Shown here: positions 2,386 through 28,697 of the stretch, in pieces
Position numbering within the stretch: the stretch's first letter is position 1
Layout of the letters: the number at the start of each line of letters is the position of its first letter
DNA from: Candidatus Korarchaeum cryptofilum OPF8
Lineage (GTDB): Archaea > Korarchaeota > Korarchaeia > Korarchaeales > Korarchaeaceae
Assembly (NCBI RefSeq): GCF_000019605.1
Contig: NC_010482.1
Coordinates: forward strand, 570,001 to 602,000
DNA length: 32,000 nucleotides
Direction: 5' to 3'
The notes under the pieces: generated by a model
What the model was told of the DNA's origin: nothing
The model's database searches: none
What the model saw: the letters and a program-made list of their open reading frames with translations, nothing else
Made by a program: the position numbers and the translations under genes

Positions 2386-2389
2386 TCCC

Positions 2390-3331
2390 ATGCACGAGAG
2401 GGCCCTGAGGCTCATCGACCTGATAATAAGCGAGGCCTTAGATGAGATAAGGCCGAGTTTCGATCCCCTGAAGGGTTACGAGTACTGCTTGAGGGGGGAG
2501 TGCGAGGGAGTAGGGGAGGCCCTAGAGTATCTATACGAGAGAGGGTATCTCAGGAAGGAGTTGCATGATAGAGTTGCTAGCTGCCCGAATTGCGGATCCG
2601 AGGTATTCCTTCTGAGGGCTAAATGCCCTTACTGCGGTTCATTGAACTTCTCTAAGGGCATAGTAATAGAGCACTTGAGCTGCGGTTACTCAGGGCTCGA
2701 GGAGGAGTTCATGAGTCCTGATGGGAGGAGGATATGCCCGAAGTGCGGGAAGGAACTGAAGGCTCCTGGGGTAGATTACATCAGAGTAGCTGACATTTAC
2801 AGATGTGCATCTTGCAAGGAGGCCTTCTCAGTTCCCTTATATTCTTATAGATGTCTGAATTGCGGTCATGAGGGCCCAATGATAGAGCTGGTCCCCAAGG
2901 AGGTCTACAAGTATCTGGTCGTCAGGGAGGCCTTTGAGAGCGATCCTATTAGCAGGAAGATCCTCGATATCGTGAGGAAGCTTGCTGATATAGGATATAG
3001 GGTAGAGGGCCCTAGAGCTAGAGTTAAGGGGAGATCCGGCGCAGAATACGATTTCACGATAGCTGTATGGTTAGAGGGATCTGATGAGCCCATAGCAGTA
3101 CTGGATTTCGTCAGAGGTCCTATTGATGATGAGAGACTCCTCTCATTCTTCGCCAAGTCCCTCGATGTCATGGCGAAGGAGAGGATATTAGTTACGCAAG
3201 CGAAGGACAGCTTAATGGAAGCGAAAGCGAGTAGGTTGGGCATAAGGGTCTTCGAGCTGGAGGATGAGGATCTCGTAGGGAAGATAGGGGAAGTGCTGCT
3301 TTCCCTGCATGTAAAAGGGAGTGAAACTTGA
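2390..3331 (+). CDS. Multi-zinc-ribbon protein, paralogue 2 (same architecture as 1429-2385)
   Basis: 313 aa with CPNC, CPYC, EHLSC, CPKC, CASC and CLNC at positions equivalent to paralogue 1. GAGGTGGT lies upstream of ATG 2390, which is only 4 nt after the previous stop. Its own stop overlaps the GT2 start. Confidence 0.55.
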   Translation: MHERALRLIDLIISEALDEIRPSFDPLKGYEYCLRGECEGVGEALEYLYERGYLRKELHDRVASCPNCGSEVFLLRAKCPYCGSLNFSKGIVIEHLSCGYSGLEEEFMSPDGRRICPKCGKELKAPGVDYIRVADIYRCASCKEAFSVPLYSYRCLNCGHEGPMIELVPKEVYKYLVVREAFESDPISRKILDIVRKLADIGYRVEGPRARVKGRSGAEYDFTIAVWLEGSDEPIAVLDFVRGPIDDERLLSFFAKSLDVMAKERILVTQAKDSLMEAKASRLGIRVFELEDEDLVGKIGEVLLSLHVKGSET

Positions 3332-4797
3332 GGAGGATATATCTCACCCTCTTCCTGATCTTCCTCAATATCTCAGTGATGCCCTTCTTCATAGGTGGGA
3401 CGCACACATTCCTCGCTTACGCTTTCGCTCTGATATTCGCTATCTATTTCTCAGCTCAAGCTTTCATATCGATGGATAGCAAGCTGCTAGGAGGGGCCGC
3501 TCTCTTCTCCCTCCTCATAATAGTCCCCATCTCCTTAGCTTTAGTAGCCTCCCTGGAGAGCCTCAGCACCTTCGAGACGATCCTCTATGGGATAATATCA
3601 TTCGGCTTCACTTTGATATCTTGGCATTACCTCCTCTTGGTGCCCCTAGCTGCCTACTATAAGAGGATGGAGGAGATAGAAGCGAGGAAGCCCCTGCTCT
3701 ACAGGCCTCTGGTGAGCGTGATAATCCCAGCTAGGAATGAGGAGAAGGTAATAGGATCCACGATAAGATCAGTTCTGGAGTCCGATTATGAGCCCAAGGA
3801 GGTAGTGGTCGTCGATGATGGATCTACGGATAGGACATTCGAGATAGCATCAATTTACCAGGGGCCCAAGGTCAAGGTCCTCAGGAGGGAGCTAGGAGGC
3901 AGGGGGAAGGCCAGAGCCCTCAACTTCGGCCTGAGATTCGCGAGAGGCGAAGTCATAGTTCTAATGGATGCTGACACTATAATAAGCAGGGATGCTATAA
4001 AAGAGCTAGTTAGAAAGCTTCAGGACCCCAGGGTATCTGCCGTAGCTGGTAATGTCATGGTGAGGAATAAAGTGAACTTATTGACGAAACTGCAGGCGAT
4101 AGAATACATAGCAACTTTCCACCTATTCAGGAAGGGATTGAGCGTATTGGGGGCTGTTCCAATAATATCTGGAGCTCTTGGGGCATTCAGGAGAAACGTT
4201 TTAGAAAGCAGTGGTCTCTACGATGCAGATACTTTAACAGAGGATTTCGACGTGACATTGAAGGCCCTCAAGTCCGGAAAGATCGTTCAAGCGAGTTCAT
4301 ATGCTCTAGCTTTCACAGAAGCCCCTGAGAAGCTGAAGAGCTTGTATAGGCAGAGGTTGAGGTGGTATAGAGGGGCTTATGAAGTTCTAATAAAACATAG
4401 GGATGCATTCTCGCTCTCAGGCTTGACTATGCTTGACTTCTCACTGATCCTGATGAACAACTTAATAATACCTCTGATAGACTTCCTATCCATAATATCG
4501 ATAATCATAGCAATATTGAGGGGCCTCATATGGCCCTTGATCATCCAGATAATCCTCTTCTCCACCCTACAGATATTAATAAATCTCTTCATATTGCAAT
4601 TGGCTGAGGAGAGAGATATCTCACTAGTATTTCTCCCGCTATTCGCAATAGGCTACAAGCAGTTCCACGAGATCTTAATGCTGAAGTGCTTCTTCGACGT
4701 TATAATAGCTAGGATGAGGGGGAAGAGCTTCTCATGGACTTTCATAGAGAGGAGGGGTCTAGAGGAGCCTAAGTTGAGAGCTGGCCCCCAATTTTAA
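3328..4797 (+). CDS. Processive family-2 glycosyltransferase (cellulose/chitin/PNAG-synthase-like membrane polysaccharide synthase)
   Basis: 489 aa with N-terminal TM helices and a GT-A core: VSVIIPARNEE, VVVVDDGSTD, LMDADT (DxD), LTEDFD (TED) and QRLRWYRG (Q(Q/R)xRW). A C-terminal block of TM helices follows. The TTG start at 3328 overlaps the upstream TGA (3329-3331). Confidence 0.8.
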   Translation: MRRIYLTLFLIFLNISVMPFFIGGTHTFLAYAFALIFAIYFSAQAFISMDSKLLGGAALFSLLIIVPISLALVASLESLSTFETILYGIISFGFTLISWHYLLLVPLAAYYKRMEEIEARKPLLYRPLVSVIIPARNEEKVIGSTIRSVLESDYEPKEVVVVDDGSTDRTFEIASIYQGPKVKVLRRELGGRGKARALNFGLRFARGEVIVLMDADTIISRDAIKELVRKLQDPRVSAVAGNVMVRNKVNLLTKLQAIEYIATFHLFRKGLSVLGAVPIISGALGAFRRNVLESSGLYDADTLTEDFDVTLKALKSGKIVQASSYALAFTEAPEKLKSLYRQRLRWYRGAYEVLIKHRDAFSLSGLTMLDFSLILMNNLIIPLIDFLSIISIIIAILRGLIWPLIIQIILFSTLQILINLFILQLAEERDISLVFLPLFAIGYKQFHEILMLKCFFDVIIARMRGKSFSWTFIERRGLEEPKLRAGPQF

Positions 4798-4830
4798 GAA
4801 GATTTTTTAACGCTGCATTCATGCAAGCTC

Positions 4831-5694
4831 ATGCTCAGAGGATTAGGCGATGGCATTCAAGTGCTCCCGGGGAGCCCCTCAACTCTCTTCATCCCTTCAT
4901 CGGATGGCTACTACATAATAGATCCGGGATCTTCCGAGGAGAGGAGAGCTGATATAGAGGCTCAGGGGAAGATAAAAGCTGTTCTGATAACTCACTCCCA
5001 CTCAGATCATATATTAGCCGCTAGGGATTTGAGATCCGAACTAGGCGTTTTCGCTCCCCTCTCCGAGACCCCCTTCATAGAGTCCCCGGAGCTCAGGGAG
5101 GCCACTACGTTCGGGGGTTACGCTCCCTGGAACTTGATATTCCACGTAGAGGCAGTTCCCCTGAAAGTGGATAATCCATTCAAGCTGCCCTTCAATTTAG
5201 ATGGGATAGAGGCGATTCCCCTACCCGGCCATACATTCGGGCAAGTGGGTTATGTAGCCAGAGGGATTTTGTACGCTGCCGATTCCTTCTTCGGAGATAA
5301 ACTCCTGAAGAACGTTGTGATCCCTTACTTCTTGGATTTCGAGACCGCTATGAGTACTATAGAGTTCTTGAGGGATAATGCGAGGGAATTCGAGAAGATA
5401 GTCCCCTCACACGGGCCTATAGTCGAGGGGAAGAGGGCTATAGAGCTCCTAGAGATGAACATGAGGGCGATGGAATCGATAAGGGAGAAGGTGATATCGA
5501 TCCTCAGGGGGAGGAAGATGTGCGTCGAAGCTCTATCAGCTAGGATATTGAGGGAGGGAGGTGCTGAACTGACCCCGGGATCTGTAATACTCTCCTCAGT
5601 GACTATAAGGTCCCTGCTCTCCAGGCTCTATGAGAGGGGCATAGTGGATGCTGAAGCTAGTGAGGAAGGCATACTCTGGAAGCTCAACGATTGA
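4831..5694 (+). CDS. Metallo-beta-lactamase-fold hydrolase with C-terminal wHTH-like tail
   Basis: 287 aa with VLITHSHSDH (HxHxDH), PLPGHTFGQ and VPSHGP. The C-terminus has LLSRLYERGIV...GILWKL (winged-helix-like). It starts 34 nt after the GT2 stop on the same strand. Confidence 0.75.
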   Translation: MLRGLGDGIQVLPGSPSTLFIPSSDGYYIIDPGSSEERRADIEAQGKIKAVLITHSHSDHILAARDLRSELGVFAPLSETPFIESPELREATTFGGYAPWNLIFHVEAVPLKVDNPFKLPFNLDGIEAIPLPGHTFGQVGYVARGILYAADSFFGDKLLKNVVIPYFLDFETAMSTIEFLRDNAREFEKIVPSHGPIVEGKRAIELLEMNMRAMESIREKVISILRGRKMCVEALSARILREGGAELTPGSVILSSVTIRSLLSRLYERGIVDAEASEEGILWKLND

Positions 5695-7423
5695 GGAAGC
5701 CCATCAGACGGTCCAGGATACCGGCTCTAGCCTTCATCTCCACTAGAGCTGGATGAATCGGATCCCTGAGATCGAACTTGAGGTCAATAAGTTGCTTTTC
5801 ATCCTTAACAGTGACCTGAAGCAGCGGATGTTCATATCTATAGCTCATCACCCTCACCTCTCCCCCTACCGCTCCCCTAACTATCCTCTCAACGGTCTCC
5901 TTCAGGATCCTGGGCTCTACCTCCATTGAACCATCCTCAAAGGAGTAGCGAACCACGAAGAGGAACATCCCCATCCGGTCCATGCCATTCAAATGGAGGA
6001 AAGCATTCACTCTCCCCCTCCTTCCCTTGAAGAGCGACTCAGGTTTTATCTTCCATAAGATCTCACTGGGGTTCCTCTCAAAATCCAGTCTTAGGCTCAC
6101 TCCCAAGTTGTATTTCGAGGATAGCTCCATCTCAGCCTCCCTTATTATATCTTCCAGGCATCCCTTTCCCAGGAGGATCCCCTCATCCCCCTTCAGGAGG
6201 AAGGAGAGGCAAGCATCACTACCCTCGAACTTACAGAAGAGCAGATATCCAGAGCTCTTCGGATCGTAAGCTGCTCTCTCAACTAGCAGCGACATATCCG
6301 GGGATCCCCTGAGATCGTTCAGTTTGAAGACCGAGAACTTCCATGAGCTCCCTCTCCTCGATTTGACGTAGAGCAGGGAGTCATCCACATCATAATCGAG
6401 CTCATCTGCATTCAATATGCGCTTCAATGCGCCTTCATCAACTTTCTTACTCAGGATATGCACTTCACCGCTGGAAGCATCGTAAGAGACGTTCAATACC
6501 ACGAAATTTATGGTCAGGGTCATGATGAAGCTCACGCGAGTCTCACCATCCCTCTCCACCACTCTGTAAGATCTAGCGATATCCTCCATGGATAGCTCGA
6601 TCATGGAGGGATCTACGGAGGTTATCCTCGAGATCTCCCTTATGACGTTCCTCCTCATTTCCTCTAATCCCGGGAGCTTCACCCTATTCATCGCTCCAGA
6701 GTACCTGTTGACCCTGATGAGCTCCAACTCATCGCCCATCTTCACTATGAAGTTAGCGTAGCCATCATCTGATCCCCTCGCTAGGATCTCGATTCCTACA
6801 GATGCCTTCTTTTTATCGAACAGGGCATCCCATGACCTCGTTATAATCCTCCTCCCGGCCCCTTGATCCGAATTCTTGAGGGACTCCAAAACAGTGGCTT
6901 CTAGTTCATCCAGCGGTATTGGCTTCAATGAGACTCTCCTTCCCCTTTCACTCAGCTCCGCCTCTCCGATCTCCCTGTCTCCTAACTTCAGGGAGTACTT
7001 GAGCTTCCTCGCTATGAGGACGGTTTCAGCATTCAATACTTTAACTGAACTCTTGGGGACCCTCAGGGACTCCGAGAGGGCTTCTAATAAAAATTCTCTA
7101 GCTTCTCCCCTGGATATCTCGCTATTAACCTCTAACTCGATCTCCCCACCTAATTCGAAGCTGAGGTAGTCCGAAGCCCTGAAATCGGTCAATTTGGGTT
7201 TTGGGGAGTTCAAGACGAGGATCTTACCGCTCTTATACAGATATGGGACGAAATCCTTCCTCCCGGATCTATTCGTATAACTCACTTGCCAGTTAATGAG
7301 GACTCCGTAATCGACTGAAGCCCATTTGAGCTCAAATTTGACCTCAGAGGGATCTATTCCGCTCTTCATAACCTCAGAATCTAAGGAAATGCTCAAGTTC
7401 TTGGGTATCAGGACGATCTCCAT
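5684..7423 (-). CDS. Uncharacterised cytoplasmic protein made of about 6-7 PepSY-like helix+beta modules (partner of the BrxL-like ATPase)
   Basis: The ORF track gives 5684-7480. I prefer ATG 7423-7421 (MEIVLIPKNL...) because GGTGGAG sits 6 nt upstream and the longer version overlaps the upstream gene by 73 nt. There is no signal peptide or TM segment. Repeated modules open with amphipathic helices: ISRGEAREFLLEAL, LDELEATVLESL, LEEMRRNVIREI, LEDIIREAEMEL and LKETVERIVRGA. Confidence 0.5.
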   Translation of the reverse strand: MEIVLIPKNLSISLDSEVMKSGIDPSEVKFELKWASVDYGVLINWQVSYTNRSGRKDFVPYLYKSGKILVLNSPKPKLTDFRASDYLSFELGGEIELEVNSEISRGEAREFLLEALSESLRVPKSSVKVLNAETVLIARKLKYSLKLGDREIGEAELSERGRRVSLKPIPLDELEATVLESLKNSDQGAGRRIITRSWDALFDKKKASVGIEILARGSDDGYANFIVKMGDELELIRVNRYSGAMNRVKLPGLEEMRRNVIREISRITSVDPSMIELSMEDIARSYRVVERDGETRVSFIMTLTINFVVLNVSYDASSGEVHILSKKVDEGALKRILNADELDYDVDDSLLYVKSRRGSSWKFSVFKLNDLRGSPDMSLLVERAAYDPKSSGYLLFCKFEGSDACLSFLLKGDEGILLGKGCLEDIIREAEMELSSKYNLGVSLRLDFERNPSEILWKIKPESLFKGRRGRVNAFLHLNGMDRMGMFLFVVRYSFEDGSMEVEPRILKETVERIVRGAVGGEVRVMSYRYEHPLLQVTVKDEKQLIDLKFDLRDPIHPALVEMKARAGILDRLMGFLNR

Positions 7424-8877
7424 CTGAACTCCACCTCGAGCTCGTTGGAATATTCGTGAGGAAGCTTCAGCCTCAACCAATCCCTCACTAGCTTCCTCAT
7501 CTCTATCGCGATATTCACTATCCTCTCCATGGTCTCCCTATCCCTGACCTTGAGGTCGGGGTAGATCAGCTTTATAGCCCCGGAGACGAGCCTTATCAGG
7601 GCCCTCTCATCCCTTATACTGACGTTCCCGAACTTCATGAAGCTCCTCGCGATTGTTGAGGCATCGAACTTCCTCATCTCATGCAGCCAGTATGATATGA
7701 GATCCAAGGAGAGGCCCTTCCCTCTCGCTATATGCTCCTGCGAGCTCCTTATCTTCGGGAGCTTCCAGCCAGGTAATATGCCATGTATCCTGTCCATCAA
7801 GGCTGTGTCCCTGGCGAACTCCGGAAGGAAGCTATCGATGTCGCGGGGCGAGCTGGGTATACTCTCAACGTTTCCGATGAAGACGAGGGAACAATCGCTC
7901 GATACAAGCTTCCCTCCCCTCTCGTAATTCCCGCTCTCCATATAGTCCTTGAGCTTCCCTATCATCTCCTCAGTCCCGCTCAAGCTCAAGTAATTGATCT
8001 CATCGAATACTACGGCATCCATAAGGCCTATGAGCCCTATTGTCTTCGTCAGCTTATTGTAGAAGAGTTCGCTGGGGGAGGCCCTCCCTCCCGATATTAC
8101 CCTGACCATGTGGGAGATGTTCTTGTAGAGATAGCTCTTCCCCGAAGCCCTGGGCCCGAACTCCATCATATTCACGTTGCACTCTATGAGGGGGACCAGC
8201 CTCATCAGATAGAGGATCTTCTGCTCGAAATCATAAGAGCTGGGATTGAGACCCAAACTCTGTATTAGGATATCCATCCACTCCTCATCAGTGAAATGGG
8301 GCCTCGCCCCTCGGAAGTATTCGATATCGAAGCTGCTTATCTCATATGGATAGAACTCCACCATCAGTACGGGCTCTGATCTCTTATCCCCATATCTTCT
8401 CTCATCATCGAAGATCAGCTTCCCTATCCCCCAGACACCGTTCCTAAGCAGGTTCTCATGCTCCTCCAGTATCTTGGGATCTATCATAGCGTTCTTGAGG
8501 TTCAGGACGGGTATCTCGAGCCTATGGACCCCTGACTTTATATCAGTCACTACTTTGAAATCGTCCAGTATGAACTGCTCCCCCTCACTCATGAGCTTAT
8601 TCAATACGACGTCTTTCTCCTCGGGCTCCGGCCTCAGCTCCCTCAAGCGCTCGTGAATTTGGGAGGAGCATTGGGATAGAGGTTTATCGCTGCATTCCTT
8701 CAGGATCAGATACTCCTCTATATAACGCGGGATCTTATAAGCGGAGAGGTTCAAGTGGAATCCCTTCTCAACCACGCAGCTGGAATCGAAGAATATCAAA
8801 AGCTTTCTCTCCAGATCCCTCGATAATGTCGATTCTGAGATGAACTCCCTATCCTGTTCCTTCATCAGATCGAACAC
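7408..8877 (-). CDS. BrxL-type (TIGR02688/Lon_2-like) AAA+ ATPase without a Lon protease domain
   Basis: 489 aa. N-terminal region: KIPRYIEEYLI. ATPase region: FTDEEWMDILIQSLGL, Walker A FGPRASGKSY (nt 8134-8157), ISGGRASPSELFYN, Walker B AVVFDEINYL, KDYMESGNYERGG, LVFIGN and MDRIHGILPGWKLPK. All are collinear with BREX BrxL as I remember it. The track start is GTG 8877. The TATA-like CAATTTTTATAAG (rc of 8888-8900) fits a leaderless ATG at 8865 (MKEQDREF) better. Confidence 0.75.
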   Translation of the reverse strand: MFDLMKEQDREFISESTLSRDLERKLLIFFDSSCVVEKGFHLNLSAYKIPRYIEEYLILKECSDKPLSQCSSQIHERLRELRPEPEEKDVVLNKLMSEGEQFILDDFKVVTDIKSGVHRLEIPVLNLKNAMIDPKILEEHENLLRNGVWGIGKLIFDDERRYGDKRSEPVLMVEFYPYEISSFDIEYFRGARPHFTDEEWMDILIQSLGLNPSSYDFEQKILYLMRLVPLIECNVNMMEFGPRASGKSYLYKNISHMVRVISGGRASPSELFYNKLTKTIGLIGLMDAVVFDEINYLSLSGTEEMIGKLKDYMESGNYERGGKLVSSDCSLVFIGNVESIPSSPRDIDSFLPEFARDTALMDRIHGILPGWKLPKIRSSQEHIARGKGLSLDLISYWLHEMRKFDASTIARSFMKFGNVSIRDERALIRLVSGAIKLIYPDLKVRDRETMERIVNIAIEMRKLVRDWLRLKLPHEYSNELEVEFRWRSS

Positions 8878-16074: not shown

Positions 16075-16234
16075 TCTCATCGAACTTCATGCTAAGCTTT
16101 TAGATTCGTCGGCGATAGCTCGAGATTTGATCATCGAGATTCGCTGAGAGGTCATATTGGTGGCATGCACTGGATGACCTGCTCAACGATCTAGCGAAAG
16201 ATCCTAAAAATTATCGGGGAGTGAGGGATAAAAC

Positions 16235-16248
16235 TTTATTATATTTTA
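16235..16248 (+). promoter_or_regulatory. TATA-like box for the 16263 gene
   Basis: CTTTATTATATTTT is centred about 22 nt upstream of ATG 16263. This argues against the GTG 16221 start in the ORF track. Confidence 0.4.
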
Positions 16249-16262
16249 CCTCTTCAGTCCAT

Positions 16263-17492
16263 ATGCCCATCAAGGATATAGTGGGTGGTAAGCTCCCGAA
16301 GGGCTCTCAGGTGGAGCTGGAGGGTACGATAACTGAGCTTTTACCGATATTCCTGATGGGAGGATCCTCCTATGAGAGGTTCTCGCTGGAGGATGGTACT
16401 GCGAGAATAACGGTAATCATGCCATCATCCGATATCTACCTCCTCCCGGGTGATAGGGTCAGAGTGGTTGGGAGAGTCAGGCCGTGCCCTTACGCTCCAG
16501 CTGTGGATTGCATCGAGACCGAGAGCGAGTACGTGGAGATAAAGGAGTGGAAGTGGATAGAGCCGAGTAGGAGGAGGAGTGAGAACAGGAAAGGCCCCTT
16601 CAATATGAGCGTGCTCCTCCACATGACTAGGCTGGATGAGGAAGTGATAAGGGGGATAGTTGAGACAGATCTAGATCCCGTTAGGATAAGGGAGAGGTTT
16701 GAAAGCTGTATAAATTCAGGAGAGAGTTGCGATCACTTGCTAGATATGCTCTCCGCTATGACGATGTACTCCATATTCCTGAGGGATTTGGATGCAGCTA
16801 GCTCAGTTAGAATGACCCTGAAATTATTGGAAACTCTACCTATCGGTAAAATACTGAACTTGCTGTCCGATATGGTGGAGACTCTAGTGAGTAGGGAGGG
16901 CCTGGCCCCCTATCTATCTGGAGAGGGTAAGGGGATCGTCGAGAGGTATCCTGTGGCCGATGAGTCGAGCTTGAAGGAAGTAGTTGAGCTCAGAGGCCTG
17001 GCTGATCGCCTAATAAATGATTTAAGGGAGGGTAAGAAGGAATTCATAATTCTTGAATTCTCGAGGGGCGAGGAACTGGAGAAGATAAGGAAGGTCGTTG
17101 AGATAGTCGCTGGGATAACTGGATCCAAATTGCTCCTACTATATGCATCCTCAGTGGCTGAGGATACCCATAATATCCTCTCCGAGATAAAGGAGACTTC
17201 TAAAAACTTGAAGGAGGATGAGAGAGCTATCCTGTACTTAGAAGCCCCTGAGCTCCTATTTCCGAATGAGAAGATGCTTGGTCTGCTGAAATTACCCGAT
17301 GAGGCTCTTGAAGGAGTATCTGATCTCAAATCGGAGTTCTCTAAGGTATTCAGGGAGCTCTCCAGCAAGATATTGATAGTGGCCGCTACTGTCTCCAGCT
17401 CTATGGTGGATGGGAACTCCATAGGGAGGCCCGTGGTAATACCGCTTGAGACCGGCGTTGAGATCGCTAGCGATATGGAGTACAGCATCTAA
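16263..17492 (+). CDS. OB-fold protein with a C-terminal degenerate (P-loop-less) classical AAA domain
   Basis: The N-terminus, GSQVELEGTITEL...FSLEDGTARITVIM...LLPGDRVRVVGRV, is an OB/tRNA_anti-like pattern. The C-terminus has AAA spacing: FIILEFSRGEELEKI in place of Walker A, then AILYLEAPELLF 60 aa later in place of hhhhDE, then ILIVAATVSSSMVDGNSIGRPVVIPLE 47 aa later, resembling VIAATNRPD.LD.A..RPGR. Confidence 0.45.
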   Translation: MPIKDIVGGKLPKGSQVELEGTITELLPIFLMGGSSYERFSLEDGTARITVIMPSSDIYLLPGDRVRVVGRVRPCPYAPAVDCIETESEYVEIKEWKWIEPSRRRSENRKGPFNMSVLLHMTRLDEEVIRGIVETDLDPVRIRERFESCINSGESCDHLLDMLSAMTMYSIFLRDLDAASSVRMTLKLLETLPIGKILNLLSDMVETLVSREGLAPYLSGEGKGIVERYPVADESSLKEVVELRGLADRLINDLREGKKEFIILEFSRGEELEKIRKVVEIVAGITGSKLLLLYASSVAEDTHNILSEIKETSKNLKEDERAILYLEAPELLFPNEKMLGLLKLPDEALEGVSDLKSEFSKVFRELSSKILIVAATVSSSMVDGNSIGRPVVIPLETGVEIASDMEYSI

Positions 17493-17574
17493 AAAATGTT
17501 TGTCCCTCTCAATAACGGGGCTCATATTAGTATCCCTGGAGCTCATCCCTACGCTGGGCGCTCCTTTAAGAGTA

Positions 17575-17607
17575 AGTTACCCCCCTAAGTTAGTTAGGGG
17601 GGTAACT
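17575..17607 (+). promoter_or_regulatory. Perfect 11-bp GC-rich inverted repeat (hairpin) immediately 5' of an ATG
   Basis: AGTTACCCCCC (17575-17585), an 11-nt loop TAAGTTAGTTA, then GGGGGGTAACT (17597-17607). The 3' arm contains the only SD-like G-run before ATG 17610. Confidence 0.6.
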
Positions 17608-17655
17608 AGATGTACTTCGACCGAGCCTAAGACCAAGAGGGAAGACCTCTTCGAT

Positions 17656-18648
17656 ATGGAGGCGGAGCTAAGGGAACTCTCAGATGGCCTCAAGTGGGAG
17701 AAGCTTGTTATAGTGACTGGTTTAAGGAGATATGGGAAGACATCGCTCATATTGACATATCTGAATGAGGAGAAGCTCGACAACATCTTCCTCGACTGCA
17801 GGCTCCTCCCTCCAGGGATGATAAGCATGGGCTCCTTCCTCGAACTATTGGAAGCTGAGCTCACCAGGAAGTCATGGGCTAGAAGGATATTGAGCAGAGT
17901 TGAGGGCATAAGCATATCCGAAATAGGGATAAGATTCAAGGAGAGGGATCTCAACTCCCTAATAAGTGCCTTACATGCATTGGAGGGGAAGATCTTAGTT
18001 ATAGACGAAGCTCAGGAGCTGAGGAGATCGAGGCATAGGTTCGATTCTATAATAGCTTACGCTTACGATCACCTCGACCTCAAGATAATCTTATCGGGCT
18101 CTCAAGTCGGCTTATTATATAGGTTCCTCAGGGTGGACGATCCCGAAGCCCCTCTTTACGGCAGACCCTTCAAGGAGGTGAGGATGAGGAAGCTGAGCGA
18201 TGAAGAAGCCATGGATTTCCTGAGGAAGGGATTTGAGCAGGCTGGAATGAAAGTAAGTGATGATATACTGGAGGAAGCCAGGAGGTTCGATGGGATAATA
18301 GGATGGCTCACTTACTTCGGCTTCTCGATGATCAGCAACAGGGAGTCCGTGGAGATTATAGAGAGGAGGGCCTCTAAGCTCGCCATAAGCGAGCTCGAGC
18401 ATGCCCTGAGGATATACGGGTTGGCTGAGGCAAGGTACAGGGAAGCGCTGAAAGTGATAGCTACTTTAGAGCGTGCGAGGTGGACCCGGATAAAGAGGGG
18501 GATTGAGGCGAGGATCGGTAAGATACCCAGCAATACGCTATCCTCCATCTTGAGCAACTTAGTGGATTCCGGATTCCTGGAGAAGACGGAGGAAGGATAC
18601 AAGATAGCTGATCCAGTTTTGAGGAGCGGAATTTTGAGATATTGGTGA
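17656..18648 (+). CDS. Archaeal ATPase family protein (Arch_ATPase/ATPase_2 + C-terminal DUF234 wHTH)
   Basis: Walker A is TGLRRYGKTSL and Walker B is LVIDEAQEL. The C-terminus has LSSILSNLVDSGFLEKTEEGYKIADPVL (DUF234-like). The ORF track starts at 17446, but that extension overlaps the upstream gene and crosses the hairpin. ATG 17656 is the first in-frame ATG. The ancestral start may be ATG 17610, which is out of frame (see findings). Confidence 0.75.
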   Translation: MEAELRELSDGLKWEKLVIVTGLRRYGKTSLILTYLNEEKLDNIFLDCRLLPPGMISMGSFLELLEAELTRKSWARRILSRVEGISISEIGIRFKERDLNSLISALHALEGKILVIDEAQELRRSRHRFDSIIAYAYDHLDLKIILSGSQVGLLYRFLRVDDPEAPLYGRPFKEVRMRKLSDEEAMDFLRKGFEQAGMKVSDDILEEARRFDGIIGWLTYFGFSMISNRESVEIIERRASKLAISELEHALRIYGLAEARYREALKVIATLERARWTRIKRGIEARIGKIPSNTLSSILSNLVDSGFLEKTEEGYKIADPVLRSGILRYW

Positions 18649-22166: not shown

Positions 22167-22613
22167 ATGATGGAAAGGGCCGTGAAAGTACTCGATGAGA
22201 GGGATAGGAAGATCCTGGAGATGATCTCCAGGGACGGCAGGGTCTCCTTCAGGAGGATAGCCGATGAGCTGAAGATAAGCGATGTAGCTGTTAGGAAGAG
22301 GATAAGAAGGCTGGAGAGGATGGGGATAATAGAGGGATTCACGGCCAGGATAAACCCAGCCTCCCTGGGCTACTCCATAATCTCCCTGACGGGCATAGAT
22401 GTACTCCCGGGCGATATAGTTAGAGTAGCAAAGGAAATAGCTGAAAAGGAGTACGCTAGATCTGTCTACATAACTGCGGGGGATCATTCGATAATGGCCG
22501 AGATATGGGCTAGGAATGAGGAGGAGTTCGGGAGGATATTGAAGGAGATAGAGGGGATGGGAGGAATTACTAAGATCTGCCCTGCTATAGTGACTCAGAG
22601 GATCAAATCATGA
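22167..22613 (+). CDS. Lrp/AsnC-family transcriptional regulator
   Basis: 148 aa. LDERDRKILEMISRDGRVSFRRIADELKISDVAVRKRIRRLERMGIIEGFTARINP is the HTH_AsnC part. A C-terminal RAM/AsnC_trans_reg-like domain follows. Confidence 0.9.
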   Translation: MMERAVKVLDERDRKILEMISRDGRVSFRRIADELKISDVAVRKRIRRLERMGIIEGFTARINPASLGYSIISLTGIDVLPGDIVRVAKEIAEKEYARSVYITAGDHSIMAEIWARNEEEFGRILKEIEGMGGITKICPAIVTQRIKS

Positions 22614-23465
22614 AGATATTTTCACCTCAACGGATTGGTTGAGCGAGCTCAGATCTATGTGATCCTCCATCTTGAGGCCCTGGCTCCTGAAATGGGCCTC
22701 AACCAACTTTGCAACATTGATCCCCTTCTTTGTGAGTCTGTAAGCGACTCCCCTCTTGCTCTCAGGATCCCTCTCCTTCTGAAGTAGCCCTTCCCTCTCC
22801 AAGTACTTCCTTATGTGATAATCGAGGCTGACCACTTTGGATCTGACATCCCTCCTCTCCCCCTTCTCCTTCAGCTTCACGTACCTCGCTAAGGAGTGGG
22901 GCGTGACCCTCTCACCCATGGCCTCGAGTTTCATAGCCACGTAGAGTATTGAGAGCGATACCTCATTCAGCTTCCACGTCGGATAGCTTATCAACTCCCT
23001 GAATCCATCCTCGGTCAGCTCTATAGCTCTAGCATCCAGATAGAGGGAGAGGTGAAAGAGATCAAGTTTGTAAGGGCCTGAGCACACTATTAGAGCTCTC
23101 AATCCGAGCTCTCCACCCTTGTACTCTCTTATCAAATTAGATAGCTCTGAGAATCTCGATATTATCTCTATTTGGTCTATCCTCTCGAAGATCTCCTCCA
23201 CCACATGATCCTTTCCGTATATGAATGCTAATCTATCCCTGAACTCCCTGAATCCATCCCCCTCGCTGCCGTCATTTATGAAGATCGAGGAGATTATCAT
23301 CCTCACTTCGCTCGACAATATTCTAGAAAATAAATGGAAATTGAGGGAGGTCGGGGCTATTAAGATGTACCAGGAATCTGATAGATCCAGAACTTTCTCG
23401 TATTGCGTTAGAGCTCTCTCTATTCCCTTGAGAGTTACCCCGACCCCCCTCGCTGACATCATCAA
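22608..23465 (-). CDS. Csa3-like regulator: divergent CARF-like Rossmann domain + C-terminal winged helix
   Basis: 285 aa. WYILIAPTSLNFHLFSRIL resembles the first CARF strand motif (..V.T.GF). ALIVCSGPYKL resembles the second (D.T.G.R). The C-terminus, LSILYVAMKLEAMGERVTPHSLARYV...IRKYLEREGLLQKERDPESKRGVAYRLTKKGINVAKLV, is collinear with the wHTH of Sulfolobus Csa3 as I recall it. The similarity is weak and judged by eye. Confidence 0.4.
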   Translation of the reverse strand: MMMSARGVGVTLKGIERALTQYEKVLDLSDSWYILIAPTSLNFHLFSRILSSEVRMIISSIFINDGSEGDGFREFRDRLAFIYGKDHVVEEIFERIDQIEIISRFSELSNLIREYKGGELGLRALIVCSGPYKLDLFHLSLYLDARAIELTEDGFRELISYPTWKLNEVSLSILYVAMKLEAMGERVTPHSLARYVKLKEKGERRDVRSKVVSLDYHIRKYLEREGLLQKERDPESKRGVAYRLTKKGINVAKLVEAHFRSQGLKMEDHIDLSSLNQSVEVKISS

Positions 23466-23637
23466 AATGTATTTTGACTAGCTTATAATCTTTTTGATCA
23501 GCCTAATTGCCTTTGATCCTCTGATATCTTTCTTCACATATGAAGGAATTTTTATTATCAAAAAGGTTAATTACCCGACTTGAATATGACATCATCACCT
23601 TTTATTAAGCAATAAATATGTAAGTATTGGGAAACTT

Positions 23638-24699
23638 ATGAAAAAGAGAGATGAGGGGATCAATGATGCGGATCTCGCTAAGCTCTCTCCCCGCATAATA
23701 CCTTACGGTAAATACAATGAAGTCTTAGAGGGACTCTCCAGGGACCTATTTTCAAATATAATAGAGCTCGTGGAGAGGGCTGAGCTCTACATCCCCAAGC
23801 TGAGGGAGATATTACCGATAACTCAGCTGAATAATGAGCTGATAAGCCTTAGGGTCGCCGCCGTCGATGCAGGATCCAACGGGAAGGATCTAATAATAGG
23901 CTATCAGCCGATAAGCATAGCTGTAGGAGCTGCCTTCAAGGACGGGATCAAGATATGCGATCCCCTCCTAGCTACTCTGAAGCCCCCATCATCCAGCCTA
24001 GATGATGAGGAAGGCGTTAAGCTCTCATCCATAATAGGCTACTATTTGATGTACAACTTAGCATCCGTTCTCCTAGATAAGAGCGATCTAATATTGATAG
24101 ATGGGCCCCTCTTCCTGCCCAGATCATACTACGCGCCCAGGGGCAGGAGCTACTCCAACTCCTACTTGGAGGTGTATGAAGCTACTCTGCGAACCCTCTC
24201 ATCCCTTCTCAGGGAAGCCGAAGCATCGGGCAAATACATTTTGGGCGTTGTGAAGAGGATAAGGAGCCATTACATTTCCCAATGGCTCGGGATAGATGGC
24301 CTCTCGGATTCCCTGATATCCTCGCTCTCAATAAAGGAGGGAGAGGCTTTAGGCCCTATACCGATCAGCGGCGGATGGGAGGAGGTCGCCAGTTATCTGG
24401 GAGATGCCAGGAGCTTCAGGCCCTGGGCCATATTCTTGAGGAGGGGGAGAGCCCCTATAAGGCTAGATCTCCCCGAATATTCTGTAGATAAAGCTTACGC
24501 TCTAGCTTCCTACATATATTCAATATCGGAGCCGAGCACAGGGCTTCCGATGCCCATATTGGCCGTGGATAGGCTCTCCAAGGTCACGGATAAGCAGAGC
24601 TCCCTCATATACAGGATGATTTTGAGGGAGGCTAGGAAGAGAGGAATTAACTCCGAGAAATTGGCTCTATTCTCGATTCAGAGGGGTGAAATTGATTGA
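23638..24699 (+). CDS. nurA: NurA-domain nuclease-like protein
   Basis: 353 aa with LRVAAVDAGSNG (first catalytic Asp strand), DLILIDGPLFLP (second Asp) and the C-terminal GLPMPILAVDRLSKV (NurA-type P..L..AD/H motif). Its stop overlaps the start of the HerA-like gene. Confidence 0.6.
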   Translation: MKKRDEGINDADLAKLSPRIIPYGKYNEVLEGLSRDLFSNIIELVERAELYIPKLREILPITQLNNELISLRVAAVDAGSNGKDLIIGYQPISIAVGAAFKDGIKICDPLLATLKPPSSSLDDEEGVKLSSIIGYYLMYNLASVLLDKSDLILIDGPLFLPRSYYAPRGRSYSNSYLEVYEATLRTLSSLLREAEASGKYILGVVKRIRSHYISQWLGIDGLSDSLISSLSIKEGEALGPIPISGGWEEVASYLGDARSFRPWAIFLRRGRAPIRLDLPEYSVDKAYALASYIYSISEPSTGLPMPILAVDRLSKVTDKQSSLIYRMILREARKRGINSEKLALFSIQRGEID

Positions 24700-27188
24700 G
24701 AGAAATTGTGGGGCACGTGATATCAAGATCAACCCCCAAAAAGATATTATTCGTGGTTCTGAAGAACGCTAAAGTATCCCTGGGAGATTTCTACGTCATA
24801 GATCATCCCTGGGAGGGAGTTCCGGTCTTCATAAGGGTTAGGGATATTCAAACAATAAATGAGGAAGTCGATCTAGGGAAAGCCGGTCTTCTTGCGAGCA
24901 GCTCAGGCTTGATCTCAGATTACAGTAGCGATCTTGAGTACATGATAGCTGAATGCGAGGTATTGGGCTATAGGTCGGAATCCGGGATAAGGGGACTGGA
25001 AGCCCCACCCTCGACTCTCTCCCCGGTTATGAGGCCTGATCCGAGGGAATTGAGCTCCTTCCTAACCCCCAGATTCTCCCAGGGGCTCCCCCTCACGATA
25101 GGCAGGATAAAGGGGACTAGGGTTCCGTTCTCCATAGATATAGCTGCGATAGCGAGGGGCCATATGTTCGTCACCGGGATGACCAGGAGCGGGAAGAGCG
25201 TCACAGGAGACACTATAATAATAATATATGATTCCTTGAGGAGGAGGTATTTCATAGGCCCGGTGGAAAGGTTCTTCGATAGCCTGCTACCGAGAGAGGC
25301 CCCAGATGAAGTTCTCCTGGATCTCAGGGAGTTAGGGTATGAGACCCTCTCTCTCTGGCCCGATTTCATTCCCAGATGGTCCAAAGTAGCTGGGATATAC
25401 AGGCACAAGCTGGATAAGGATATTTACGAGATTGAGACATCCACCGGGAGGAAGGTAAGGGTAACGGAGGATCACAGCCTCTTGGTCTCCGATGGGACTA
25501 ATTTGCTCAAGGTCACACCCAAGAAACTAGCTGGGATGAGCGAGAGTTATTTGATAGTCCCTAGAGGAGCTTCCTTAAGGCCAGCTGGCTATCAAGCGCA
25601 TCTAGATAGGCTCCTGGGCATTAGCTTAGCTTCAGGAGTTGCTTTGAAGGATGGAGTCCTCATAATGGATCCCGATATAGCTGAAGTGAAGTTAGCTTGC
25701 CTCGAAGCTGGAGTGGATTTCATCACATTGAAGAACAGGGGCATCTTCGTGAGATCTCCCGAATTAGCTAAGATAGTTTCCTCAGGCCTCAGCTCCCTCC
25801 TGAATCTCCCCGAGGAGGTCGAAGAACTTGGGGTGAGGTTTTATCCTCTAGCTAGGGCCCTCAGGGAGCTCCTCCTCAGGACGGCAATTCACGAGAAGGG
25901 CAACCTATCCCTCCTCATGCTGGAGGAACAGAGAGCCCTAATCCTATCGACGATACTATCTATTCTGGGCGTATCCACGGTTAAATTCTGCCCAAAAGGC
26001 TTCCTAGTGGATTCCATCTCATTCAGGATGCTCATGGATCGGCTGGAGAATTGGAAGAAGCTCGGGATGGACGGAGGAACGCTGCTCAAGGAAGTCAGGA
26101 AAGTGGAGGGGCTCATCTACAGGGCATCCGTCAACCTGGAGAGAGTGGTGAGCGTCAGGAAGGTATATACGAATGCGAAATATGTTTACGATCTCGACGT
26201 GCCCGATACTCAGAGCTTCCTAGCTAATGGAGCATTCGTCCACAACAGCAGCTTCGTCTCGAGCTTGATAGCGAAGTCCTCTGACCTCAAGCCCAGGCCC
26301 AGGTTCCTCATCCTCGATAGGAGAGGGGAATATGAGAGGCTCTCGAGCAAGGGGGGAGCGATATACGATTACTCAGCATTCCTGCCGAGGAGCATGAGCC
26401 CCGGAGCTCTTGCCAAGAGGTTAGGGTATAAGCCCGGGACCCTCTCCCATCAGCTCCTGCTCCTGGCGTTGAGGGATGCCGATGGAGATGCCTCGGAAGC
26501 TCTGAGGAAGCTCAGGCAGGTGGCTAGGGAGATGAGGGTGAGGCCCTCCTTGGTCGGGGAGATAGAATCCAGGCTGAAGAGGGAGATACCGAAGCTCGGG
26601 AATGGAAAGGAGCTCAGCATCGTCGATGAGGTTAGGAAGAACCCCATAGTAATAGTGGACCTCTCATCGGACAGGAGGTATGAGGATCAGTTCCTAGCCA
26701 TAAGGAACATAGTTGAGGAACTATCGAATTACGCCGTATCGAGGAGGAGGGAGGGGGACTTCGCCCTGATAGTTGTCGTTGAAGAAGCTCAGTACGTGAT
26801 CCCGGAGAGGGGCTTCTCCATAGTCGGGGATCCCTACGATTCCGGGGTAGCTCAATCTTTGATAGAGGCGATAAGTCAGGCCGGGGGCTACAACTTGGGA
26901 TTCGTGATCGTGACGCAGAGACCGGCCTACGTCAGCAAGAGTGTCATAAGCCAGGCGAATACCGTAGTAGCGTTCAGATTGAGGAACGGGAACGATCAGG
27001 AGGCTATATCTAAGTACACGGAGGTGGAGGAGGTATCATCCTACCTCCCCACGCTCTCGGATCACGAAGCCCTCATATGGGGGATGGGGAGCTGCGTCCC
27101 CTTCCCCGTTCAGGTGGAGGTGGAAGTAGTTGCCTTACCATCGAAGTCATCGAGCTCACCCGAGAGGGCCTGGGAGAAGATGTTATAA
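24696..27188 (+). CDS. herA: HerA/DUF87-family (FtsK-HerA superfamily) ATPase precursor, interrupted by an intein in the Walker A loop
   Basis: 830-aa precursor with a HAS-barrel-like N-terminus (ILFVVLKNAKVSLGDFYVIDHP...VFIRVRDI). The Walker A motif is split as GMTRSGK|...|SSF. After removing residues 168-517, GMTRSGKSSFVSSLI is restored. Walker B is ALIVVVEEAQYVIP. FVIVTQRPAYVSKSVISQANTVVAFRLRNGNDQEAI is HerA-type. The TTG start at 24696 has GGGGTGA 5-6 nt upstream. Confidence 0.8.
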   Translation: MREIVGHVISRSTPKKILFVVLKNAKVSLGDFYVIDHPWEGVPVFIRVRDIQTINEEVDLGKAGLLASSSGLISDYSSDLEYMIAECEVLGYRSESGIRGLEAPPSTLSPVMRPDPRELSSFLTPRFSQGLPLTIGRIKGTRVPFSIDIAAIARGHMFVTGMTRSGKSVTGDTIIIIYDSLRRRYFIGPVERFFDSLLPREAPDEVLLDLRELGYETLSLWPDFIPRWSKVAGIYRHKLDKDIYEIETSTGRKVRVTEDHSLLVSDGTNLLKVTPKKLAGMSESYLIVPRGASLRPAGYQAHLDRLLGISLASGVALKDGVLIMDPDIAEVKLACLEAGVDFITLKNRGIFVRSPELAKIVSSGLSSLLNLPEEVEELGVRFYPLARALRELLLRTAIHEKGNLSLLMLEEQRALILSTILSILGVSTVKFCPKGFLVDSISFRMLMDRLENWKKLGMDGGTLLKEVRKVEGLIYRASVNLERVVSVRKVYTNAKYVYDLDVPDTQSFLANGAFVHNSSFVSSLIAKSSDLKPRPRFLILDRRGEYERLSSKGGAIYDYSAFLPRSMSPGALAKRLGYKPGTLSHQLLLLALRDADGDASEALRKLRQVAREMRVRPSLVGEIESRLKREIPKLGNGKELSIVDEVRKNPIVIVDLSSDRRYEDQFLAIRNIVEELSNYAVSRRREGDFALIVVVEEAQYVIPERGFSIVGDPYDSGVAQSLIEAISQAGGYNLGFVIVTQRPAYVSKSVISQANTVVAFRLRNGNDQEAISKYTEVEEVSSYLPTLSDHEALIWGMGSCVPFPVQVEVEVVALPSKSSSSPERAWEKML
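25197..26246 (+). mobile_element. Intein (350 aa, Ser1 ... His-Asn / Ser+1) with a degenerate LAGLIDADG-type endonuclease insert
   Basis: Block A is SVTGDTIIII, starting at AGC 25197. Block B is KVRVTEDHSLLV (TxxH). Blocks F/G are YVYDLDVPDTQSFLANGAFVHN, ending at AAC 26244-26246, followed by Ser. The central LDRLLGISLASGV looks like a LAGLIDADG helix in which both acidic residues are lost. Confidence 0.85.
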
Positions 27189-27209
27189 GCTCAGCGAGCA
27201 GCTAACCGT

Positions 27210-28697
27210 ATGATAAGGATATTCGATTCCACCCTCACCCTGGGTGAGATGGTACCCGGCGTCTCCTTCGGCCTAGAGGGGAAGCTCGAGATAGCCTCGC
27301 ATCTCGATACCCTCGGCGTGGATGTCATCGAAGCAGGCTTCCCCGCATCCTCCGAGGGTGAGAAGAGGGTAGTCAGGGAAGTAGTGAGGAACGTGAAGAG
27401 GTTATCGAGATCGGGCCTCTCCCCCGAGGTATGCGCATTAGCTAGAGCTATAAGGGAGGATGTGAAGGCCGCTGTAGAGACTGGAGTCGATAGCGTGAAC
27501 ATATTCATACCGGCCAGCAGGTTGCTGTTGGAGAGAGCTTACGGGATGAGAGAGGAGGAGGCGAGGGAGAGGGTCAGGGAAGCGGTGAGCTTAGCTAAAT
27601 CGCATGACCTCACTGTTGAATTCACGGCTGAGGATGCTGGAAGGTCCGATGATCTCCTCTGGGATCTCTGCAGGATAGCTGAGGAGTCCGGGGCGGATAG
27701 GATAAATTTGAGCGATCCAGTCGGAGCCATGCTCCCTGATGATGCTAAGAAAATCGTTTTAGAGGCGAAGAAGAGGATAAGGAAGCCGATAAGTGTGACA
27801 TTCTCCAACGACTTGGGGATGGCTACGGCTAATTCTCTATCAGCAGCTATAGCTGGAGCGGATCAGATACACGTATCGGTCAACGGCCTCGGTCCTAAAG
27901 CTGGTATAGCGCCTCTAGAACAGGTAGTAGTCGGGTTGAAGAAGTTAGCTGGCCTCGATACCAATGTGAAGATGGAACTCCTGCCCAGCGTGAGCGAAGC
28001 TGTAGAGAGGATAAGCGGTATCCCGATCAGCGAGATATCCCCTATAGTAGGTCCCTTAGTCTTCACTTATGAAGCCGGTGTTCACGTCAGCGCTATATCT
28101 AATGAGCTCTCCAGCTATGAGATAGTGAGCCCCGGGGAAGTTGGAAGGGTCAGGAGATTCTGGGTCGGGACTCACTCAGGGAGGAAGGCAGTTAAAGAAG
28201 TGCTCAAGGAGATGGGATATTCAGCGAGCGATTCAGATGTGGAGAGGATATTGGCTAGGGTGAAGGAGCTCTCTCAAGAGGGAATCAGAATTACTGAAGC
28301 TATATTCAGATCAGTAGTGGAGGAGGTGCTGGGGGAGAGGCCGAGGCTCTTCAAGGTGAAGGAGTGGGTGGCCGTGACCGGGAGCGGGATAACTCCCACA
28401 GCAACAATAAGGGCATTGATCGGTGGGAGGGAAGTGATATCATCCTCGAGCGGAGTTGGTCCGGTGGACGCTATAACTAAGGCCATAAGATCGATACAGG
28501 GCATACCGAGTTTCAACTTGAGGAGGTTCAGGCTAATAGCTGTCTCATCTGGATCTGAGGCGATAGCTGAGCTTAAGATAAGGGTTGTAGGACCTAAGGG
28601 GGAGGTTGAAGCTGCAGGGACCAGCAGGGATATAGTGGATGCTTCACTGAAGGCCATTGAGGAAGCAGTAAATAAGATCATTCCCAGGGAAAGCTGA
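27210..28697 (+). CDS. Citramalate/2-isopropylmalate synthase homologue (DRE-TIM + LeuA_dimer domains) with substituted catalytic residues
   Basis: 495 aa, collinear with M. jannaschii CimA as I recall it (GVDVIEAGF, VEFTAEDAGRSD, NDLGMATAN, THSGRKA, GVGPVDA). However DTTLRDGEQ is DSTLTLGEM, HCHND is TFSND, DTVG is DPVG, GIGERAGNA is GLGPKAGIA, and FAHEAGIH is FTYEAGVH. Confidence 0.75.
   Translation: MIRIFDSTLTLGEMVPGVSFGLEGKLEIASHLDTLGVDVIEAGFPASSEGEKRVVREVVRNVKRLSRSGLSPEVCALARAIREDVKAAVETGVDSVNIFIPASRLLLERAYGMREEEARERVREAVSLAKSHDLTVEFTAEDAGRSDDLLWDLCRIAEESGADRINLSDPVGAMLPDDAKKIVLEAKKRIRKPISVTFSNDLGMATANSLSAAIAGADQIHVSVNGLGPKAGIAPLEQVVVGLKKLAGLDTNVKMELLPSVSEAVERISGIPISEISPIVGPLVFTYEAGVHVSAISNELSSYEIVSPGEVGRVRRFWVGTHSGRKAVKEVLKEMGYSASDSDVERILARVKELSQEGIRITEAIFRSVVEEVLGERPRLFKVKEWVAVTGSGITPTATIRALIGGREVISSSSGVGPVDAITKAIRSIQGIPSFNLRRFRLIAVSSGSEAIAELKIRVVGPKGEVEAAGTSRDIVDASLKAIEEAVNKIIPRES

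Follow-up and report, generated by a model that had tools for sequence, protein, structure and literature searches.

A transcription factor resembling the archaeal regulator Csa3, encoded divergently from a translationally coupled nurA-herA gene pair, probably controls that pair, and together the three genes would form a regulated core chromosomal module for DNA-end processing in the class Korarchaeia; we put the probability of this reading at roughly 60%. It derives from a stretch of 32,000 nucleotides of Candidatus Korarchaeum cryptofilum OPF8 (contig NC_010482.1, positions 570,001–602,000; hereafter the window), which contains the regulator gene (REG), genes for a NurA-domain nuclease and for a HerA-clade ATPase interrupted by an intein, and, downstream of herA, a gene for a LeuA-like protein (Table 1). 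An earlier note on this DNA had described these four open reading frames (ORFs), and all four lie at the coordinates, and contain the peptide strings, that it gave. As described there, an AT-rich spacer of 172 nt (28% G+C) separates REG from nurA, the coding regions of nurA and herA share 4 nt (TTGA, 24696–24699), and 21 nt lie between herA and the LeuA-like gene. The sequence GAGGGGTGA directly 5' of the overlap is the predicted ribosome-binding site of herA, and the two genes are predicted to be coupled in translation. All named homologues of the window proteins are from Candidatus Korarchaeum or Korarchaeota. The observation behind the earlier note was thus real, and its reading of a Csa3-like regulator paired with NurA and HerA largely right.

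The arrangement is kept throughout the class. In a scan anchored on NurA, with each GTDB species represented by one genome, 20 genomes were recovered; they bear the labels Korarchaeum, Methanodesulfokora, Thermoproteota, Crenarchaeota or Nitrososphaerota archaeon and are counted here as Korarchaeia by the similarity of their cassettes. In each of the 20, REG on the minus strand is directly upstream of nurA on the plus strand, and herA, interrupted by an intein at the same site, comes next. Searches anchored on REG find a divergent nurA at every locus with enough upstream DNA (8/8 informative metagenome loci). The surroundings of the cassette are wholly different in lineages of the Methanodesulfokora, P0045 and P0042 types, and a linkage that is kept amid such change is more than residual synteny. 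Scans of viral contigs for relatives of NurA and REG were negative. Because no viral relatives were found, the neighbours are housekeeping genes and the members of the class sequenced so far preserve synteny, we read the cassette as not mobile, and its distribution is best explained by three chromosomal genes that were inherited vertically as one cassette within the class Korarchaeia. The earlier note had tied its interpretation to conservation of the gene trio, which holds for REG, nurA and herA, with the LeuA-like gene falling outside the conserved module.

The nearest HerA proteins beyond the korarchaea are found in Bathyarchaeia, with 40–46% identity over 99% of the spliced protein. As in the window, nurA precedes herA in these pairs; they have neither REG nor the intein, and they adjoin a second herA-nurA pair. 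From the absence of both elements in Bathyarchaeia we conclude that korarchaea added REG and the intein to a nurA-herA clade of Korarchaeia and Bathyarchaeia. At two bathyarchaeal loci (L043:2515–9300 and L044:2416–9292) the order is herA-nurA, a nitroreductase gene, nurA-herA and then a gene for a metallophosphatase of 225–232 aa, and the tandem pairs sit in a housekeeping neighbourhood with genes for aCPSF1, SepF and ribosomal proteins. Matches to NurA in Caldivirga and Thermocladium (L040, L041) were set aside, since about 90 residues are matched and the herA-nurA context is different and without REG. Two observations on individual korarchaeal loci should also be mentioned. At L020 (1587–3203) a single ORF joins the N-extein of HerA to part of the intein and to the last 208 residues of REG. 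A real arrangement with REG downstream of herA was rejected, because an N-terminal fragment of REG is also present in the expected divergent position upstream of nurA, and the fused ORF is probably an assembly chimera. The metagenome-assembled genome INS_M22_B125 holds two complete, differing REG-nurA-herA-leuA-like cassettes on two contigs (L028, L031); their NurA proteins are each about 53–54% identical to that of the window, and their REG proteins belong to different sub-families. Either the bin is mixed or the cassette is truly duplicated.

In REG, a Rossmann/CARF-like N-domain (approximately residues 24–166) precedes a MarR-type winged helix-turn-helix (wHTH) domain (approximately residues 167–260). 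Translation probably starts at the ATG at 23462 or at that at 23459, and the gene calls in identical contigs give 283–284 aa. The resemblance to Csa3 claimed by the earlier note is borne out by predicted structure and by the wHTH domain, but not by any significant sequence match. A monomeric AlphaFold2 model was built from 20 family members, with a confidence score (pLDDT, predicted local distance difference test) of 83 for the full-length protein; the N-domain modelled separately reached 89. In Foldseek, the top PDB match of the full-length model is Csm6, and four of the five matches with E ≤ 0.001 are Csa3 chains. The Csa3 entries 2wte, 6w11 and 6wxq align with the model over 236–244 columns (E 2.0e-4 to 3.5e-4, probability 1.00). 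With the N-domain model, CARF proteins (Csm6, Cam1, Card1 and Can2, TMq, i.e., query TM-score, 0.43–0.54) account for all of the first 7 matches and most of the first 25, Csa3 appears at ranks 29 and 37, and Cad1 is matched as well.

A chain of weak homologies leads to the same reading. The REG relative P0044 (locus L007) matches PF19810 (HFX_2341_N) with E 1.4e-6 and 29.2 bits, against a cut-off of 30, and PF22665 (DUF6293_C) with E 6e-5. The alignment of the window family (A1) and the L007 regulator are in turn connected by hhalign with 93.5% probability (E 2.3e-7, 127 columns). The window protein itself matches neither PF19810 nor PF22665, and 3 of the 20 family members match DUF6293_C at about 0.01. 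From these profile matches REG is judged remotely homologous to proteins of the DUF6293/HFX_2341 type. In Haloferax mediterranei, HFX_2341 reportedly resembles Csa3a (99.7% HHpred probability) and acts as a repressor with no link to the clustered regularly interspaced short palindromic repeat (CRISPR) systems (PMC11434293). A HMMER search of 1.84 billion representative proteins with the REG profile returned 8 proteins at E ≤ 1e-3, which means that no bridge leads from REG to large families; P0043 (613 aa, five matched stretches, repetitive sequence) was judged a spurious relative. Through the predicted structure and these homologies, a Csa3-like CARF/wHTH architecture is the best reading of REG, although by sequence REG falls outside the Csa3 family.

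The spacer between REG and nurA contains a candidate operator. The core of the palindrome O1, CAAAAT-N2-ATTTTG (23463–23476), is the sole match in the 32 kb of the window, where 0.06 would be expected with at most one mismatch. It occurs exactly once per locus in 29/29 fetched loci, always at the 5' end of REG, and it is kept although the REG proteins are only about 20–50% identical across lineages and the spacers are otherwise unalignable. When 13 spacers, each representing a lineage, were compared, 11 contained the 7-mer ATTTTGA (null mean 1.3), and in 200 shuffles no 7-mer was found in more than 8 of the 13. We read O1 as the predicted REG operator for autoregulation. A TTATAA box, found in 10/13 lineage spacers, adjoins O1 in most lineages, and its distance from the REG ATG codons implies a leaderless REG mRNA. 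The placement of O1 between this box and the ATG codons is the position expected for autorepression of such a transcript. Csa3a binds palindromic sites that adjoin the TFB recognition element and TATA box (BRE/TATA), an arrangement similar to that predicted for REG. The operators themselves are unrelated, the predicted REG site being CAAAAT-N2-ATTTTG and that of Csa3a TCCC-N8-GGGA.

Related elements extend towards nurA. Two direct TTTGAT half-sites are conserved in the Korarchaeum-type spacers (window, L021–L023), and an O2-like everted repeat reads TTTTTATTATCAAAAA in the window and TTTTGA-N2-TCAAAA in several other lineages; versions of it are TTTTGAAATCAAAA in L028 and L004, TTTTGATATCAAAA in L024, TTTTGAATACAAAA in L026 and TTTTGATCACAAAA in L029. 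Closer to nurA, a block similar to that in the window and then a TATA-like box were found by eye in all REG sub-families. The most divergent REG sub-family has GTAAAATTTTCTTTGA-like sequences in place of the palindrome, which is compatible with co-variation of factor and site. In the mechanism that we infer, a REG dimer would bind O1, between its own TATA box and start codon, and repress its own leaderless transcript. It would also bind the TTTGA(T) half-sites and the everted repeat upstream of the nurA promoter, and in this way set the expression of nurA-herA. A small ligand of the N-domain, such as cyclic oligoadenylate (cOA) or another nucleotide-like signal, may alter the binding of REG to DNA.

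Table 1. Features of the cassette, its spacer and the adjoining LeuA-like gene, in window positions (a dot stands for no strand)
Feature	Position	Strand	Remarks
REG	22608–23465	-	285 aa; ORF call
O1 palindrome TCAAAAT-GT-ATTTTGA	23462–23477	.	between REG TATA-like box and REG start codon
TTATAA, TATA-like box	23483–23488	-	about 22–26 nt upstream of REG ATG codons; putative promoter element
Two direct TTTGAT half-sites	23493–23498, 23512–23517	.	about two helical turns from O1 right arm; putative function
O2-like everted repeat TTTTTAT-TATCAAAAA	23549–23564	.	upstream of nurA promoter; putative function
GA(C/G)(C/T)TGAA block	23577–23584	+	conserved as judged by eye
TATA-like TTTTATTAA	23600–23608	+	about 34 nt upstream of nurA ATG; found by eye
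NurA-domain nuclease	23638–24699	+	353 aa; PF09376
HerA-clade ATPase precursor	24696–27188	+	830 aa; DUF87, HAS-barrel, Intein_splicing
HerA N-extein	24696–25196	+	HAS-barrel, Walker A to GMTRSGK
Intein within herA	25197–26246	+	350 aa; TIGR01445, TIGR01443, PF14890
HerA C-extein	26247–27185	+	Ser+1, Walker B VVVEEAQ, TQRP
LeuA/CimA/homocitrate synthase (HCS)-fold pseudoenzyme (predicted)	27210–28697	+	495 aa; HMGL-like, HCS_D2, LeuA_dimer

The assignments of NurA and HerA in the earlier note stand, and the motifs of both proteins are intact. NurA matches PF09376 over model positions 2–254 of 254 (E 3e-10, 40.4 bits against a cut-off of 21), and a phmmer search against the PDB gave no match. 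Asp77, Asp155 and Asp311 are invariant in alignment A4, and Glu124/Glu125 nearly so; mapped by motif position, these acidic side chains are the likely catalytic residues of an RNase H-like site. HerA matches DUF87 (PF01935; E 1.7e-8, 35.3 bits against 23.2) and, just under the cut-off, the HAS-barrel (25.1 bits against 25.2), and its PDB matches include HerA entries, with E down to 3.6e-13. In these features, i.e., the acidic NurA residues, the HAS-barrel and ATPase of HerA, and adjacent coupled genes, the pair resembles the archaeal HerA-NurA end-resection complex. Unlike the herA-mre11-rad50-nurA operon, it has no mre11 or rad50 nearby, nurA comes before herA, the P-loop carries an intein, and the predicted dedicated regulator is divergent.

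The intein interrupts the Walker A loop between GMTRSGK and the following serine. It begins with Ser1, contains the block B motif TEDH and ends with His-Asn before Ser+1 of the C-extein, and so has the features of a class 1 intein (N-terminal nucleophile, TxxH, C-terminal HN and +1 nucleophile). The intein models TIGR01445 (30.1 bits against 24.5) and TIGR01443 (32.8 against 15.6) are matched, as is Intein_splicing (PF14890, E 7e-16). Removal of the intein restores GMTRSGKS and leaves a spliced HerA of 480 aa with Walker B and TQRP, the length foreseen in the earlier note. An intein is present at the identical site in all HerA orthologues of the Korarchaeia, over a range of 27–90% identity. 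In its middle part, of about 200 aa, neither LAGLIDADG nor another homing-endonuclease family was detected; some relatives' inteins carry an HTH_3 match in this part. The precursor, with its Walker A loop split, would become an ATPase only after splicing, and the P-loop intein could serve as a conditional-splicing switch. Once spliced, HerA would form a hexamer that translocates DNA and passes it to NurA, whose nuclease activity would resect ends or degrade the DNA.

Several observations weigh against a Csa3-like regulator in control of nurA-herA. No significant CARF or Csa3 match was obtained with REG among Pfam, NCBIfam and PDB profiles; the sole Pfam match is HTH_27 (residues 217–248), and PDB profile searches with two REG alignments reach MarR-type wHTH domains only. 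The PADLOC Csa3 models are matched below threshold and mostly in the wHTH domain (E 2.7e-4 for residues 213–259 only, and 7e-3), and no matched stretch passes alone. In the comparison of the N-domain model, ordinary Rossmann proteins score only slightly below CARF proteins. The ligand motifs of Csa3 are T-h-G-F-[ND]-E-x4-R after strand 1 and L-x2-G-h-R after strand 4. Their counterparts in REG, APTS-x-[ND]-F and VCSG-x-x-K, echo them loosely and, in the Korarchaeum-type group, are conserved; the basic residue is missing in several REG members, and across the four REG sub-families no position of the N-domain is invariant. With about 160 nt between it and the nurA ATG, O1 could serve REG alone. 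Finally, neither a cas gene nor a cyclase was found near the cassette, in the window or in the listed flanks.

These points bear on three other interpretations. First, the N-domain of REG might be a degenerate dimerisation scaffold that binds no ligand, in which case REG would be a constitutive repressor or activator. The lack of invariant N-domain residues and the loss of the Arg/Lys of the second Csa3 motif in several members would fit such a scaffold, and the DNA binding of S. solfataricus Csa3a is independent of cyclic tetra-adenylate (cA4) in vitro. On the other hand, few segments in the Korarchaeum-type group are as well conserved as the loops that follow strands 1 and 4 (LSDS..APTS..F and VCSG), and the N-domain is kept in every REG member; we therefore consider a ligand-free REG rather unlikely.

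Second, REG might be a general factor, or one that regulates only itself, with its position next to nurA-herA being no more than inherited gene order. The global repressor HFX_2341 offers a precedent, since its deletion alters many unrelated genes (PMC11434293). The location of O1 on the promoter of REG itself, distant from the nurA start, would agree with this, and much further synteny is also kept within Korarchaeum-like genomes. However, the pairing persists where all other neighbours have changed (L007, L016, L018 and L036), it is complete (100%) in both search directions, and related half-sites and an everted repeat are found on the nurA side of the spacer. A REG unconnected with nurA-herA is thus considered unlikely. 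As for the comparison with HFX_2341, the DUF6293/HFX_2341 family (PF19810 and PF22665) resembles REG in being a Csa3-like archaeal regulator without linkage to CRISPR; it differs in that HFX_2341 is a global repressor for which a NurA/HerA neighbour is not reported (PMC11434293).

Third, the cassette could be an antiviral module, in which REG senses cOA from a type III CRISPR-Cas system encoded at another genomic locus and switches on NurA-HerA, either to degrade DNA as an effector or to provide fragments to spacer acquisition. The best structural matches of REG are indeed cOA sensors. NurA/HerA families of Thermoproteales co-evolve with type III systems, Pyrobaculum has nurA-csm6-herA clusters, and weak matches exist to the PADLOC "Type III coevolved" models for NurA (E 1.2e-5) and HerA (E 2.9e-5). 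Defence systems that combine HerA with a nuclease are also known in bacteria, a theme on which the earlier note had drawn, and the anti-phage models NF042943 and NF042944 (SIR2-HerA and DUF4297-HerA; 63.4 and 55.5 bits, cut-offs 800 and 850) score about like the canonical repair equivalogs NF040937 and NF040819 (51.4 and 44.8 bits, cut-offs 800 and 970). Judged by these models, the window HerA appears equally far from canonical repair and anti-phage HerA, and scores of about 50–63 bits against cut-offs of at least 800 speak against membership in any of them. Moreover, conservation of the cOA-contacting motifs is poor, the cassette, unlike patchy defence islands, is syntenic and found across the class, and no viral or mobile relatives were found. 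As the earlier note had stated, mre11, rad50, cas genes and CRISPR arrays are absent from the window, where tRNA genes and Rfam RNAs were also looked for and not found; in those flanks of the relatives' loci for which genes are listed, cas genes, CRISPR arrays, mre11 and rad50 were not found either. Nothing at the cassette points to a mobile defence island, be it cas linkage, patchy distribution or mobility, so that the defence theme, although established in bacteria, gains no positive support here, and an antiviral module is improbable.

Comparison with these systems also shows where the korarchaeal cassette differs. It shares with the type III-associated NurA/HerA families and the Pyrobaculum clusters a HerA with a partner nuclease, and with the latter also the presence of a CARF protein. 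The CARF-like protein here is a predicted transcription factor and not a Csm6 RNase, and there is no adjacency to CRISPR-cas. Compared with bacterial SIR2-HerA and DUF4297-HerA, the partner of HerA is NurA, and the model matches are weak.

The LeuA-like protein matches HMGL-like, HCS_D2 and LeuA_dimer (E down to 1e-61 to 1e-140) and thus has the full domain set of LeuA, CimA and homocitrate synthase (DRE-TIM metallolyases), but it scores under every NCBIfam equivalog cut-off. The earlier note had proposed that it lost active-site residues and kept its allosteric domain, and both parts hold. In alignment with 6ktq and 6e1j, the canonical RE/DGEQ is TLGEM and HxH is TFS; two other korarchaeal lineages (L001:4629–6149 and L004:4623–6167), at 62–63% overall identity, have SQGEL and AFF. 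The substrate Arg, the Asp/Glu and both His metal ligands are hence replaced (T/S, L/Q, T/A and S/F) in 3/3 lineages compared. By these replacements, the protein is a predicted conserved pseudoenzyme that keeps the LeuA_dimer regulatory domain. The gene is found behind herA in the sub-clade whose NurA identity is 51% or more, and only there. In the window, TTATAA (27183–27188) lies about 24 nt upstream of its ATG, and in other lineages the herA/leuA-like gap holds a T-run together with a conserved TTTTTATAGAA box, about 25 nt before the ATG. Because of these TATA-like boxes, co-transcription with herA was rejected as the default, and of the two options in the earlier note, co-transcribed accessory or neighbour, the second is preferred: the gene is most probably a separately transcribed neighbour outside the conserved module. 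That the pseudoenzyme is transcribed with nurA-herA and belongs to a NurA-HerA machine as its third component, a subunit that senses amino acids or keto acids, is very improbable, despite its position on the herA strand 21 nt downstream (and always directly downstream where present), the retained LeuA_dimer domain and the same dead active site at 62–63% identity across lineages, given the probable promoter of its own and the absence of the gene from the REG-nurA-herA cassettes of L007, L018 and L032–L039. At its 3' end the LeuA-like gene converges with, and overlaps by 20 nt, a gene for an Ldh_2-family dehydrogenase.

On the other side of the cassette, a gene for an Lrp/AsnC-family regulator (22167–22613, plus strand) converges on REG, with a 6-nt overlap at the REG 3' end; in other Korarchaeia the AsnC gene is several kb from REG, beyond a Na+/H+ exchanger and an amino-acid permease. 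Farther away in the window, an ORF on the minus strand (7408–8877) encodes a BrxL-like Lon-related ATPase (BrxL_N and BrxL_ATPase, E 1e-108) and overlaps a downstream 598-aa ORF (5684–7480, minus strand) without a Pfam match. No further bacteriophage exclusion (BREX) genes were found among the window ORFs scanned. Two tandem paralogues on the plus strand (1429–2385 and 2390–3331) contain a TackOD1 domain (E 1e-33 to 1e-35), and the second also matches zinc-ribbon models. The segment at 16221–18648, 5' of the lipoate-ligase genes, varies among otherwise near-identical Korarchaeum contigs, with ATPase_2 and MCM_C-wHTH genes in some and other small ORFs elsewhere (L012/L015 compared with L013/L014, approximately 2000–5000); the REG-nurA-herA cassette thus has a small variable island at a distance of about 5 kb.

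The closest parallel to the proposed control of nurA-herA by REG comes from Sulfolobus. The earlier note had stated that Csa3a activates nurA/herA in S. islandicus, and this is correct: Csa3a binds promoters of both the nurA-mre11-rad50-herA operon and a stand-alone nurA-herA operon (PMC5587795). Csa3a from Sulfolobus/Saccharolobus (PDB 2WTE, 6W11 and 6WXQ) and REG have in common the Rossmann/CARF domain, the MarR-like wHTH domain and the class of target, nurA/herA, which is demonstrated for Csa3a and predicted for REG. They show no significant sequence similarity, and the Csa3 ligand motifs are only loosely echoed in REG. REG is also not located beside cas genes or CRISPR arrays, but is linked in cis to nurA-herA throughout the class. 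By analogy, the control that Csa3a exerts in trans in S. islandicus would be mirrored here in cis, with the regulator and its predicted targets at a single locus. A role in DNA repair and recombination, as already known for these proteins in archaea, is favoured, and the module may also serve in defence or in CRISPR adaptation, for which Sulfolobus Csa3a offers a proposed example.

Regulation of double-strand-break processing in archaea is poorly understood, and to our knowledge the binding of Csa3a to nurA/herA promoters in Sulfolobus is the sole direct link. Class-wide conservation of REG, its predicted operator and nurA-herA offers a compact, testable system in this respect. More tentatively, and with clearly less confidence, one may envisage a circuit independent of CRISPR, in which a CARF-type sensor reads cOA or a signal of damage or stress and sets the level of NurA-HerA, with the intein as a post-translational gate. 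If true, this circuit would be a dedicated regulator of the archaeal response to DNA damage or infection, and CARF signalling would have been exapted for, or be ancestral to, genome maintenance instead of CRISPR immunity. Beyond the conserved LeuA-fold pseudoenzyme to which the locus also points, it raises the questions of whether CARF-type sensors control DNA repair outside CRISPR loci, which ligand is bound by orphan regulators of the DUF6293/HFX_2341 type, and whether P-loop inteins may gate repair ATPases.

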